From: a virus
Length of the DNA stretch: 21,656 bases
Virus genome (UHGV): UHGV-0374425
Strand: one strand, 5' to 3'
Shown here: one piece after another, positions 1,214-5,341 of the stretch
Numbering within the stretch: position 1 is the first letter of the stretch
Layout of the letters: each line of letters opens with the position of its first letter
Translations under genes and position numbers: made by a program
Notes under the pieces: generated by a model
The model's input: only the letters and a program-made list of their open reading frames with translations
What the model was told of the DNA's origin: nothing
Database searches by the model: none

Positions 1214-2128
1214 TCAGTAGCGATGCAGTGAAGGCGGCAACTCTTTGTTCTTAAGCCTTTCCCATGCCAGAAGGTTCGTCGGCCCGTCAGGCTCATAAAT
1301 ATCTATATCCCGCGTGTGATTAATTAAAACGCCCCTCGCCCTCCCGATGGTATACGAGAACTCATAGCCGTAGTCGTGGCATATGCCGGAATAGCCAGAC
1401 TGAATCAGTTTTAATGCGGGATACAACTCACGGAACAATGCCTGTGAGCGGTTAGCATAATCCCATAGCCATACAAGGCTGTCTGTTTCTTTTGCGGAAA
1501 GCTCGTTGGTGCTCTTCTCTTGTTTGCCGATTAACTCTCCTTCAAGCGGAACGCGAGCAGCAAGTGACAGAGCTTCGGTAAACTGCTCCTCGCTGATTTC
1601 TTTGTACGAACATCCAAAATGTGATTTCAGTGACGACCACATGGTGATCATCGCCTTCGCCTGTTTTTCCTTTGGCAGAGACTGACCGCGACTCATGACG
1701 AGTTGTTTAATGGCTTCCTGCTGTTCAGTAGTGATTTTCCCCGGCAACGCCTTTTTAGCTTTCAGTGTATTTCCGTAAGACCCCGTTTTACGAATGGATG
1801 GCAAAACTTCAGCTGTCACCCATTTGCGGAATTTGTGCGGGACTGAACCTTTATTGACGGCATCGCGGCAACGCAGAACCAATGTATACATACCTGATTC
1901 GCTCACAATGCTTAAATTCTGCTCACCACCAAGGGTGTAACTTAAAGTTACTCCCTTTTCATCGTCATCAAGTGCAGTAAGCGCCTTGCGTGAGTTAGTC
2001 AGATTTAAAGCATCACAAACATCTTTTGCTACAAACCACGGCTCACCGCACTTGTTGATGACGCGGATTTCACTGTCGCCGAATTTGAAGATGGTGAAAT
2101 CGTTTTGTGCCTTTGCTATACTTTTCAT
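1214..2128 (-). CDS. ant: Antirepressor Ant (P22 Ant-like, BRO-N type N-terminal domain)
   Basis: 304 aa; N-terminal [16 protein letters not shown]...LDDDEKG...GGEQ...IVSESGMY...[15 protein letters not shown] closely parallels P22 Ant as recalled; AGGAAA RBS; follows the arc-like gene. Confidence 0.85.
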
Positions 2129-2200
2129 GTCAATATTTCCTAATCCGATTTGTTGATACCGAAGCCCTGACTGTTACAGCAGTTGGGGCTTCAACTTTTT
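2129..2200 (+). ncRNA. sar: Candidate sar-like antisense RNA covering the ant ribosome-binding site
   Basis: Plus-strand hairpin GAAGCCC(2161-2167)/GGGCTTC(2186-2192) followed by AACTTTTTAGG in the arc-ant intergenic region, antisense to the ant RBS; possible -10 TATACT at 2117-2122. Matches the position of P22 sar. Confidence 0.4.
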
Positions 2201-2331
2201 AGGCTGCGAATAAGACGCTGCACTATTTCTGAATTTAAAGACCTGCCCTCCTCCTTAGCCTTTTCCTTCAATTTTTCTTTAATCTCTGGCGGGATACGAA
2301 TCCCTAATGGAGCGATATCTCTAACTTTCAT
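2191..2331 (-). CDS. arc: Arc-like ribbon-helix-helix repressor (46 aa)
   Basis: MKVRDIAPLGIRIPPEIKEKLKEKAKEEGRSLNSEIVQRLIRSLKS: strand-helix-helix pattern with GRS.NSEI motif as in Arc/Mnt/CopG; directly upstream of ant. The 87 aa version in the ORF track would run across the operator region and the mnt start, so the internal ATG at 2331 is preferred. Confidence 0.7.
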   Translation of the reverse strand: MKVRDIAPLGIRIPPEIKEKLKEKAKEEGRSLNSEIVQRLIRSLKS

Positions 2332-2345
2332 TTCTTTCCCAATTG

Positions 2346-2430
2346 CTACACCGTGATAACTAAATACTACACCGTGCTTATTTAAAGTCAAAGTTTTTTT
2401 GCCTACACTGTGTAGCAATGCTACAGCGTG
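2346..2430. promoter_or_regulatory. Divergent promoter/operator region with four copies of a CTACAC(C/T/G)GTG motif, one extended to the palindrome CTACACTGTGTAG
   Basis: Motif at 2346-2355, 2367-2376, 2403-2412 (palindrome 2403-2415) and 2421-2430. Candidate -35 TTGACT / -10 TAGTAT on the minus strand for arc-ant; candidate TTTAAA / TACACT on the plus strand for mnt. Confidence 0.55.
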
Positions 2431-2441
2431 CAGGAGGAAAA

Positions 2442-2690
2442 ATGAAAGGTGCAAGAGATATCAGTCCCTTGGGAATTAGGATTCCAGACTATTTAAAGAA
2501 ACGCATTCAGCAGGAAGCGGATAAAAACGGCAGATCAATGAACTCAGAGATTGTGCTTATCCTTCAAAAACATGTTGATAATCTTGATGGCCCTCGCTCA
2601 CTTGAAGGATTCGCTAACCAAGAAGCTGACAAATTCAAAGAGGCGCTGCTTGAGACGCTAAAGACCATGTATGGTAAGGATGAAAAATAA
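2442..2690 (+). CDS. mnt: Mnt-like ribbon-helix-helix repressor (82 aa)
   Basis: MKGARDISPLGIRIPDYLKKRIQQEADKNGRSMNSEIVLILQ...: same length and RHH pattern as P22 Mnt, with C-terminal extension; strong RBS CAGGAGG at 2431-2437; the upstream ATG at 2418 lacks an RBS. Confidence 0.75.
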   Translation: MKGARDISPLGIRIPDYLKKRIQQEADKNGRSMNSEIVLILQKHVDNLDGPRSLEGFANQEADKFKEALLETLKTMYGKDEK

Positions 2691-3226
2691 TGCTGCACAC
2701 AATTCATTTCTTATGCCCCGTTAACACTGCCACTGTTGGGCAACTTCAGAACCACTGTCTCACCGCATTATCTCAAGGCGCAACTGAATTAAATATCCAT
2801 ATATCAAGTCAGGGAGGGGAAACTGCCGCTGGCTTTACTGCGTATAACTTTCTTAAGTCACTCCCTGTTACCGTTAGAACTCACAACATAAGCAATGTTG
2901 AATCCATAGCTAATATCGTTTTCCTGGCTGGCTCAGAACGTTTCGCAAACCCATTATCAAGATTCCTGTTACATCCTCTATTATGGGTCTTTGCCACCCC
3001 AGCCGCCGACCATGCCAGATTGAGAGAGTACGGGAAATGCCTCGATAACGATCTTGATCGCTTCGTTGAGACGTTCAATATCGACATCGGAACCCATATT
3101 AGGTGGGCATCCCTGATAGCAGACTCGACCATTTTGGATGCTAACAAGGCTCTTGAGCATGGCATAATTAATTCCATAAAAACTGCAAGGCTGGCATCCA
3201 ATCAGGCAAACTGGTGGGTTGTTTGA
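2690..3226 (+). CDS. ClpP-family (S14-like) serine peptidase homolog, translationally coupled to mnt
   Basis: 178 aa; NIHISSQGGETAAGFTAYNFLKSLPVTVRTHNISNVESIANIVFLAGSERFANPLSRFLLHP aligns by eye with ClpP [62 protein letters not shown]; candidate Ser, His and Asp at ClpP-equivalent positions; start ATG overlaps the mnt stop (TAATG). Confidence 0.6.
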   Translation: MLHTIHFLCPVNTATVGQLQNHCLTALSQGATELNIHISSQGGETAAGFTAYNFLKSLPVTVRTHNISNVESIANIVFLAGSERFANPLSRFLLHPLLWVFATPAADHARLREYGKCLDNDLDRFVETFNIDIGTHIRWASLIADSTILDANKALEHGIINSIKTARLASNQANWWVV

Positions 3227-3251: not shown

Positions 3252-3273
3252 AAAAAACCCACCTGACGGTGGG
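3252..3273 (-). terminator. Rho-independent terminator-like hairpin downstream of L
   Basis: Minus strand reads CCCACCGTCAGGTGGGTTTTTTAT directly after the L stop. Confidence 0.6.
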
Positions 3274-3282
3274 CATAATCCA

Positions 3283-3981
3283 TTACTGCGAAAGTTTATT
3301 AATGGAAAGGAAACCGCCAAAATTGCCGACATTCCTGCGCAGTTCACACCCGCGCATGCACTTGCTGCATCTGTCCTTACGGATATCCGTGGTGGGTTTA
3401 TCGAACTCATCCGCCACAGCCCCGCCCGTGTAACCACACTCATCAGAGCGGTAAGTCCACATACAGGTATTCGCCAGCATAATGCGACCGGGAAACAGCG
3501 CACCGTCCGTCTCCGTCGGTGTCGCCAGCACAAACGAGGCCGTCATGGCCGTCAGCGCTGATAACTGCTCCACCACCCACCGGTCCGTCAGCTCCTGCTC
3601 CGGGTCTGCCTCCGGATTCCCCGCCACAAAGTTCACCGCATCAAGAAAACGCGCATACACCCGGCGGCGGACCACCGTGGCACCCACCAGGCTCTGCAAA
3701 TCCTCCGCCATCCCGGTGACAAGGCCGAAAAGATTGGACACCGTCAGCGACGGGCGGGCACTGCTGCCCTTTCCGTTCATCTCAAAGCCGCTGCCCTCAA
3801 TCGGGTACGCCTGATATTCACGCCCCTGCCAGGTCACCGGCTCCCCTTTTTCATTCAGCTCATTACAGAAAAAATACCGCTCACCACCCTGCACCGTCAG
3901 GTCAATTTCCCAGAGTACCACCCGCGGTGACTGCTCTGATTTAACCGACTCATTCAGGCTTTCTTCGTTGATCTCCTGCAT
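3283..3981 (-). CDS. L: Minor tail protein L
   Basis: Translation ...VVLWEIDLT..GGERYFFCNE.NEKGEPVTWQGR.YQ.YPI.GSGFE.NGKG...GNFGGFLSINKLSQ parallels lambda gpL along its length; start placed at the ATG of MQEINEESL (3981), preceded by GGTGGA, rather than the upstream ATG of the track ORF. Confidence 0.9.
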   Translation of the reverse strand: MQEINEESLNESVKSEQSPRVVLWEIDLTVQGGERYFFCNELNEKGEPVTWQGREYQAYPIEGSGFEMNGKGSSARPSLTVSNLFGLVTGMAEDLQSLVGATVVRRRVYARFLDAVNFVAGNPEADPEQELTDRWVVEQLSALTAMTASFVLATPTETDGALFPGRIMLANTCMWTYRSDECGYTGGAVADEFDKPTTDIRKDRCSKCMRGCELRRNVGNFGGFLSINKLSQ

Positions 3982-3993
3982 AAACATCCACCC

Positions 3994-4020
3994 ATAAAAA
4001 AAGGGGCGCAATGCGCCCCT
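3994..4020 (-). terminator. Strong rho-independent terminator (GGGGCGCA/TGCGCCCC stem plus T7) ending the porin transcription unit, immediately upstream of the L start
   Basis: Minus strand reads AGGGGCGCATTGCGCCCCTTTTTTTATGGGTGGATGTTTATG. Confidence 0.7.
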
Positions 4021-4177
4021 GATAAAATAGTTCAATTAAAAAATCAAAAACGATGAAGGTAATAAAATGAAAATTAAATCAGCTAATAGCTGATCGCAGT
4101 GACCAGTGGAAATATAACTTCCACTGATACAGGCCATCTGTGAGGGCAGATGGCCTGTATTTATTTACCAGTAATCA

Positions 4178-5341
4178 TCAGAACTGATAAGTCATACCAA
4201 CAGCAACGATATCATCCGTTGCAATGCCCGCATCCCTGGTAAACTTATTCTCATCAACCAGATTGATTTTATAATCAACATAGGTGGACATATTTTTATT
4301 GAAGTAATATTTCGCACCTACGTCAACATACTTAACCAAATCCTGGTCACCATAGTTTTTACCACCTACAATGACATCCTGAGCACGAGACTGCAGGAAT
4401 GCCAGAGATGGACGCAGACCGAAATCAAACTGATACTGCAGTACCGCTTCAAAGTTTTGCGCTTTATCTGCAACTCCTTTATCACCAAAGGTCGTCAGAT
4501 TCTGAGTTTCGGAATATGTTGTAGCCAGGTAAAGGTTGTCAGCATCGTATTTTAGTCCGACTCCCCACATCTCAGCGTGTTTACCTTTTGCAACACTACC
4601 GGAATCAACAACGATCTGCTTTTCAGTCACTTTACCGGTTAAAGGATCAGTTTGTTCAATCGTCAGAGTACCATTCAGACCTTTTTCCTGATTATTGGTT
4701 CGGTCCGCATTAATATATGCGGCAACGATACCAAAACCTTCATATTCATAACTGGCTGAGAAACCGTGACCATCACCATTAGCTTCCCGGAGATCACCCC
4801 GATCATTTTTACCCTGGTACTGTGCCGCAAAATTCAGGCCATCGACAAGCCCAAAGAAATCTGTATTACGATAGGTTAATACCCCGGAAGTACGGGCTGT
4901 CATGAAGTTATCGGTCTGGGTCCAGCCATCACCGCCAAACTCTGGTAATACGTCAGTATAAGAACCAACATCGTACGCAATACCATAGTTACGACCATAA
5001 TCAATGGTGCCAAACTCACCAAACTTCAGACCTGCAAATGCAAGACGGGTTTTATTACCCGCAGCACCCTCTGATTCAGCTTTATTACCAGAGAACTGAT
5101 ATTCCCACTGACCAAAACCAGTCAACTGGTCATTAATCTGAGTTTCACCTTTAAAGCCCAGACGTGCGTATGTCTTATCTCCATCATCCCCCTTATCACT
5201 GGAGAAATAATGGAGTGCAGTTGCACGCCCATACACATCAAGTTTATTGCCATCTTTATTGTATACTTCTGCAGCCTGCGCCCCCGCTGCAAAAATTACA
5301 GCTGCTGCCACAGCTGAAAGTGCCACTGTCATTTTTTTCAT
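4178..5341 (-). CDS. OmpC/OmpF/NmpC-family general porin (prophage moron) with signal peptide
   Basis: 387 aa; signal peptide ending [51 protein letters not shown] and C-terminal ...YVDYKINL...GMTYQF match E. coli OmpC as recalled; AT-rich upstream region; hairpins downstream. Confidence 0.9.

Follow-up and report, generated by a model that had tools for sequence, protein, structure and literature searches.

A probable sar-type antisense RNA gene opposite the ant leader in an immI-like module of an Escherichia coli lambdoid prophage

The sar RNA of Salmonella phage P22 was reportedly characterised by Liao et al. 1987, Wu et al. 1987 and Schaefer and McClure 1997, and the last of these studies is said to have found that the structure of the target matters for sar pairing in P22. 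sar pairs with the leader of the antirepressor gene ant and blocks initiation of its translation, thereby serving as a post-transcriptional brake beside the repression exerted by Arc and Mnt (PMC12197685, PMC7968456). It has been detected by small-RNA sequencing in P22-infected cells, and P22 is the only phage for which sar expression is documented (PMC13397905). An ‘ant moron’ has been described in Salmonella phage epsilon34 and P22-like phages (PMC2629481). Like the locus analysed here, it is an independently expressed ant module with sar that is inserted into a late operon, and its sar was annotated on the grounds of likeness to P22, an inference of the kind also made here; however, epsilon34 carries stem-loop I, Arc and Ant of the P22 type, whereas our locus has another class of stem-loop I and other partner proteins. 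Lambda OOP, P22 sas and IS10 RNA-OUT are likewise short structured antisense RNAs with a terminator hairpin, and RNAs of this type mask the ribosome-binding site or trigger decay, acting at the 5' or intercistronic part of their targets (PMC5415839, PMC12197685). These three RNAs are without sequence or structural homology to the element considered here, which lies in a window that matched the sar family only.

The window, by which we mean the whole stretch of 21,656 nucleotides of UHGV virus genome UHGV-0374425 that was analysed, very probably holds at 2129 to ~2200 on its plus strand the gene for a sar-type cis-antisense RNA, within an immI-like module (mnt / arc-ant) located between tail genes K and L of an E. 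coli lambdoid prophage.

The immI-like module and its surroundings

The module has the same gene order as P22 immI (mnt / arc-ant). As judged from Pfam matches and from alignment to P22, arc is followed by ant on the same strand and mnt is divergent, with the Mnt-like protein aligning to P22 Mnt over its full length. The genes and candidate control sites are as follows.

1214-2128, minus strand: ant antirepressor gene, 304 aa (Pfam Bro-N, 2.5e-20, and P22_AR_C, 2.2e-25)
2191-2331, minus strand: arc-like repressor gene, 46 aa (Pfam Arc, 5.2e-13; aligned with P22 Arc)
2442-2690, plus strand: mnt-like repressor gene, 82 aa, divergent from arc (Pfam Arc domain, 6e-08)
2364-2391, minus strand: candidate Pant, TTGACT-16-TAGTAT (from the promoter scan only; position as that of P22 Pant upstream of arc)
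2344-2430, no strand assigned: four copies of CTACAC(C/T/G)GTG (CTACACNGTG), from a repeat search (family D1, inverted pairs I1-I3)

The module is flanked by tail genes of the lambda type, K at 422-1159 and L at 3283-4035, and its host element is an E. coli lambdoid prophage of the long-tailed, siphovirus type. A prophage of E. coli CP55_Sichuan matches the window at 100% identity, and Escherichia phages PhiR12_1, PhiR12_4 and PhiR12_5 match the module at 99.8%. The site of the module between lambdoid tail genes K and L differs from that in the P22-like podovirus, in which the module lies upstream of the tailspike gene. The proteins differ as well: Arc is 39% identical to P22 Arc, and Ant shares 61% identity with P22 Ant over its C-terminal 170 aa, whereas the N-terminal domain, Bro-N here, is unrelated. 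Ant is in this sense a domain chimera relative to P22 Ant, and the two nevertheless have in common the first five codons, M-(K/N)-S-I-A, in which the -10 element of Psar lies.

The candidate Pant would drive arc-ant, the presumed target transcript of sar; in P22, transcription from Pant is reported to stimulate Psar. All four copies of the CTACAC(C/T/G)GTG motif lie in the 110-bp spacer between arc and mnt, one of them forming a 13-bp palindrome, and we regard them as candidate Arc/Mnt operators. Arc and Mnt of P22 have different DNA-reading strands and different operators. In our locus, unlike in P22, the N-terminal DNA-reading strand PLGIRIP is common to the Arc-like and the Mnt-like repressor, so that both may read the same sites, and the occurrence of one motif together with the common strand suggests shared rather than separate operators.

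Three further features of this part of the window lie outside the arc-ant region. A 178-aa ORF of the ClpP family at 2690-3226 on the plus strand (Pfam CLP_protease, 1.6e-11) begins at the stop codon of mnt (ATGA overlap), and the lysogen would co-transcribe the two; orf59a and sieA take this place in P22. A hairpin resembling a terminator, with its T-run (GCCCACCGTCAGGTGGGT TTTTTT), is found on the minus strand at 3257-3274, where the inserted immI-like module borders on tail gene L; it directly follows that gene and may shield the module from any late-operon transcription lacking antitermination. An OmpC-type porin gene encoding 387 aa (4178-5341, minus strand) is inserted between tail genes L and M; the RefSeq record of the identical CP55_Sichuan locus names it ompC, and the PhiR12 phages, similar in other respects, lack it.

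The sar element and its predicted promoter

When the whole window was compared with all 4,227 Rfam families, the sole match was RF00262 (sar RNA) at 2130-2196 on the plus strand, with 69.4 bits (gathering score 43) and an E-value of 8.5e-13. This match spans model positions 1-68 of 68 and is not truncated. The element and its associated sites can be listed as follows.

2094-2122, plus strand: Psar-like promoter, GTGAAA-17-TGcTATACT (promoter scan; aligns with the annotated P22 Psar)
2129-2200, plus strand: predicted sar RNA, ~70-72 nt (RF00262 match, alignment to the annotated P22 sar, fold)
2129-2135 with 2151-2157, plus strand: stem of stem-loop I, 7 bp, with a 15-nt loop (MFE fold)
2161-2192, tail to 2200, plus strand: stem-loop II, predicted intrinsic terminator, 14-bp stem, loop UACA (terminator scan)
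2136-2141, minus strand: ant Shine-Dalgarno AGGAAA, ~7-9 nt upstream of the ant ATG and opposite sar loop I

The predicted 5' end, G2129, adjoins the ant ATG (2128-2126, minus strand), and the 3' end is expected within the T-run at 2198-2200. Nucleotides 2136-2141, in the loop of stem-loop I, read UUUCCU and constitute an anti-Shine-Dalgarno sequence. Stem-loop II contains GAAGCCC (2161-2167) and GGGCTTC (2186-2192), the latter being followed by AAC and by TTTTT at 2196-2200; the terminator scan of the plus strand returned it as a stem of 14 pairs (7 G-C, 4-nt loop) followed by AACTTTTTAG. The 72 nt of 2129-2200 reach a minimum free energy of -29.8 kcal/mol, compared with -11.5 +/- 2.5 kcal/mol for dinucleotide shuffles (z = -7.4), and none of 200 shuffles folded as well. 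The region contains three terminator-like sites where 2.1 are expected, which is not above chance by itself, and three promoter-like sites in the consensus scan where 3.8 are expected; as these counts are within the shuffled expectation, the promoter and terminator matches alone prove nothing.

The structural and positional features by which the sar family is recognised are found at this site. Two stem-loops with helices of 7 and 14 bp are present, the 3' one being a rho-independent terminator with a U-run, and the element is positioned antisense over the arc-ant intercistronic region and the ant ribosome-binding site. A Psar in the 5' end of ant that is convergent with Pant is found as well, as far as geometry goes, with its activity predicted, and the predicted length stands next to the ~68-69 nt that the family calls for. 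One PhiR12 phage record and two E. coli chromosome records carry no RNA gene annotation at this site, and our search of the literature on RF00262 or sar in E. coli prophages returned nothing specific to the locus.

The sar RNA, promoter and terminator of P22 are all annotated in its RefSeq record, and we aligned that part of the record to window positions 2080-2215. P22 sar (1517-1586 of the P22 locus, L001) aligns to 2129-2198, such that the P22 +1 G falls on G2129 and the annotated P22 3' end on 2198. Since the ends of P22 sar map to these two positions, the interval 2129-2200, which an earlier note on this DNA had proposed as a ~70-nt plus-strand element antisense to the ant ribosome-binding site, is essentially the homologous transcript, and both the end-to-end family match and the P22 register bear this proposal out. 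Promoter, +1 and terminator all lie in the register annotated in P22, so that the likeness to the P22 arrangement that had been suggested extends over the entire unit. The hairpin with GAAGCCC at its start and a T-run at its end also reads exactly as had been described, on the plus strand between arc and ant. The element is, however, not purely intergenic, because the arc stop codon (TGA, 2191-2193, minus strand) is inside the 3' arm and the T-run encodes the last arc codons.

P22 sar and the RNA predicted here are both antisense to the stretch that begins beside the ant ATG and reaches the 3' end of arc, and since sar stops there, arc itself is hardly covered. The two-hairpin architecture with the anti-Shine-Dalgarno sequence in loop I is the same in both, and the P22 terminator differs from hairpin II of our locus by one loop base and is otherwise identical. 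By contrast, stem-loop I, the part facing the ant ribosome-binding site, reads GUUGGU...ACUGAC in P22 and GUCAAUA...UGUUGAU here, with pairing kept through compensatory changes; the ant Shine-Dalgarno differs correspondingly (AGGAAA here, GGAGAA in P22), and the loop is 1 nt shorter here than in P22. The T-run consists of five T here compared with three in P22, and the arc stop codon, which is inside the terminator stem in our locus, lies within the T-run in P22. In this comparison with P22 sar forms an island of homology, the flanks of which are unrelated or diverged.

The Psar-like promoter consists of a -35 element GTGAAA (2094-2099), a 17-bp spacer, an extended TG (2114-2115) and a -10 element TATACT (2117-2122). 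It is located inside ant codons 3-12, and TATACT corresponds to ant codons 3-4 on the other strand. A possible -10 within the first ant codons had been pointed out before, and it proves to occupy the same columns as the -10 of P22 Psar. P22 Psar (L001, 1482-1510) aligns column for column with 2094-2122, in the same register, and the block TTGCTATACT, which includes the -10, is identical in the two phages. The -35 element is weak and agrees with the consensus at 4 of 6 positions. As Psar lies within ant codons, its conservation could be a by-product of coding; the variation of the encoded residues argues against this. Although Ant codons 2-4 differ, 17 homologues retain the pattern nTGnnA-17-(TGn)TAnnnT, and the residues encoded across the -10 vary between S-I, S-L, I-V and T-I. 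The -10 hexamers of the homologues are TATACT, TAAGCT, TACAAT, TAAACT and TATAGT, with T1, A2 and T6 present in all. A TG upstream of the -10 is found in most homologues and a TG-containing -35 at 17 bp in all of them, and the predicted +1 is a purine that adjoins the ATG in 17/17 sequences. Codon usage gave no independent support for the promoter: ATA accounts for 3 of the 17 Ile codons in ant, and the idea that TATACT forces a rare ATA codon was not decisive, since ATA also accounts for 9 of 43 in neighbouring genes.

By positional homology with P22 Psar, the extended -10 promoter inside ant codons 3-12 would start an RNA at G2129, opposite to arc-ant, and this RNA would probably end at the 14-bp hairpin and U-run of 2161-2200, which would make it ~70 nt long with two stem-loops. 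Loop I would then present UUUCCU opposite the ant Shine-Dalgarno AGGAAA. If the P22 mechanism operates here, pairing over the ant leader from -1 to ~-70 would hide the ribosome-binding site and lower translation of Ant while leaving arc unaffected, and the RNA would act as a post-transcriptional brake on the antirepressor on top of transcriptional repression by Arc and Mnt. Complementarity between sar and the ant mRNA is perfect by construction, as in any cis-antisense RNA.

Conserved pairing, strand and alternative readings

A sar match adjoins ant in 11/11 other phage loci that were fetched (P22, epsilon34, N7, phiv205-1, S.Kent, EC.P3, Emek, Cronobacter ES2, SPN3UB, a Klebsiella phage and Edwardsiella GF-2), with 32-98 bits. 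The gathering score of 43 was reached by nine of these eleven, and the two below it are Klebsiella phage ST101-KPC2phi6.1 (38.6 bits) and Edwardsiella phage GF-2 (32.1 bits). Matches were also obtained at E. coli O157:H7, Entomohabitans and Pectobacterium loci, and in 80/80 IMG/VR loci encoding relatives of Ant a sar element is found directly upstream of the ant ATG.

We examined the structure in an alignment of 22 distinct sequences, counting pairs on the two-helix structure (21 pairs). Standard pairs are formed by 97% of the cells, and sliding the partners by 1-3 columns lowers this to 37-48%. In nine of the 21 pairs both members have changed, and the observed values were reached by none of 500 shuffles, a control that overstates significance because many of the 22 rows are close relatives and the pairing signal is partly inherited rather than independent. 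What remains convincing is the control with slid partners together with the double changes in the P22 type, SPN3UB, Klebsiella and two of the further loci (L048 and L110). Considered separately, 94% of the cells pair in stem-loop I, where 4 of 7 pairs change on both sides, and 98% pair in stem-loop II, where 5 pairs do so. RNAalifold independently returned the same two helices from this alignment.

A cis-antisense pair is self-complementary on both strands, and covariation alone therefore cannot pick the strand. The same conservation might be read as that of a sense-strand hairpin in the arc-ant mRNA, either a stem-loop with a stabilising or processing role or an attenuator, without any antisense RNA. 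Indeed, the reverse complement does form a hairpin in the ant leader, as is inevitable for any cis-antisense pair. The two strands are nonetheless far from equivalent. Folding energies average -29.6 kcal/mol on the plus strand and -19.3 kcal/mol on the minus strand, so that the minus strand is ~10 kcal/mol worse, and the plus strand folds better in 22/22 sequences. At five stem positions the plus strand has predominantly G-U pairs, for which the minus strand would have A-C mismatches. The sense-strand ant leader has z = -1.1, with its Shine-Dalgarno unpaired in the fold, and upstream of the element there is a plus-strand promoter in the P22 register. The U-run follows the hairpin only on the plus strand (the minus strand reads GGUAUCAAC), so that the hairpin cannot serve arc-ant as an intrinsic terminator; with this missing U-run and the weaker fold, a sense-strand terminator or attenuator was ruled out, and a sense-strand hairpin of any kind seems to us highly improbable. 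Covariation, the strand asymmetry of folding and the conservation of key promoter bases instead support a functional plus-strand RNA, as far as sequence comparison and folding models can indicate. That the stretch encodes a small protein is scarcely credible. A 31-aa ORF with a GTG start at 2107-2202 on the plus strand does appear in the program-made ORF list, but it begins upstream of the homologous transcription start, has no apparent Shine-Dalgarno upstream of its GTG and lies antisense to ant and arc; indels of 1-3 nt in loop I of the homologues break its frame, and this reading was ruled out.

It is also conceivable that the element descends from a sar gene and is inactive here, with a silent promoter, its conservation reflecting recent descent together with the coding or ribosome-binding needs of arc and ant. 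The sar version of the window is 97-100% identical across many E. coli prophages, which leaves little time for decay to become visible, the -35 fits the consensus at four positions of six, and the prophage carries inserted cargo, namely the porin gene and the ClpP-like gene. However, the promoter geometry and the -10 are identical to those of the functional P22 Psar, the -35 of which (GTGTTA) is no better. In more distant homologues compensatory changes maintain both helices and the key -10 bases are retained despite residue changes, and the T-run is longer here (five T) than in P22 (three T). We consider such a loss of function improbable, although somewhat less so than the sense-strand hairpin, and favour a sar RNA gene that would be expressed in this prophage.

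Mosaic junction and distribution

Just past the T-run, on the arc side, identity collapses in every comparison made, and this is the sole sharp boundary. Comparison with O157-type loci, in which the Bro-N half of ant next to sar is 92-100% identical as well, did not bear out the view of sar as an isolated island of conservation. An identical or near-identical sar hairpin abuts at least ten unrelated upstream genes (loci L043-L122, at ~1427-1440), among them seven Arc-like types, a Cys-rich ORF and an 89-aa ORF of membrane type, and the terminator is therefore a recurrent mosaic junction. It often supplies the upstream gene with its stop codon, either TGA within the stem or TAA within the T-run, and with its last residues, (K/E)S.

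Stem-loop II is nearly invariant among the homologues, whereas stem-loop I falls into several sequence classes. From this combination sar RNAs could act in trans in a class-specific manner. We tentatively raise the idea, which we think has a small chance of being right, that the sar cassette, comprising Psar with the first codons of ant, the body of sar and its terminator, is a portable unit with sharp mosaic boundaries, joined by unrelated Ant N-terminal domains at one end and by the unrelated upstream genes at the other, where the terminator even provides their stop codon and last two residues, and that sar RNAs exert a class-specific ‘RNA immunity’ in trans between co-resident or superinfecting phages. 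If so, a prophage would use its sar RNA to silence ant in incoming phages of its own class, and ant of another class would be unaffected.

The element is a member of a known RNA family in its canonical context, and its recognition is a matter of correct annotation that opens no new question. The modestly novel angle is confined to the cassette-like mosaicism and the possible classes of trans specificity in stem-loop I. The antisense control of the antirepressor known from P22 since 1987 would not be peculiar to P22-like podoviruses but would travel with ant modules in long-tailed E. coli lambdoid prophages, and sar is a candidate regulator for studies of prophage induction and cross-talk in pathogenic E. 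coli.

The version of sar present in the window was found in 478 of 5,426 complete E. coli genomes, O157:H7 included, and identity was at least 90% in 455 of the 483 matching E. coli records. A scan of 596 Gb of genome sequence with the hairpin 17-mer GAAGCCCTGACTGTTAC returned 28 matches, nearly all in unrelated taxa and in a number consistent with chance; these were rejected as sar loci except for Pectobacterium and Entomohabitans. In E. coli O157:H7 FRIK2533 (L041, 2545-2846), the sar region is 97% identical and scores 66.7 bits against the Rfam model; this copy occupies 2546-2612 of L041, corresponding to ~1610383-1610449 of NZ_CP015842.1. At this locus ~230 bp without an annotated gene separate sar from a truncated-looking 36-aa ORF of the Arc family, and the arc partner may have been degraded there while sar and ant were kept.
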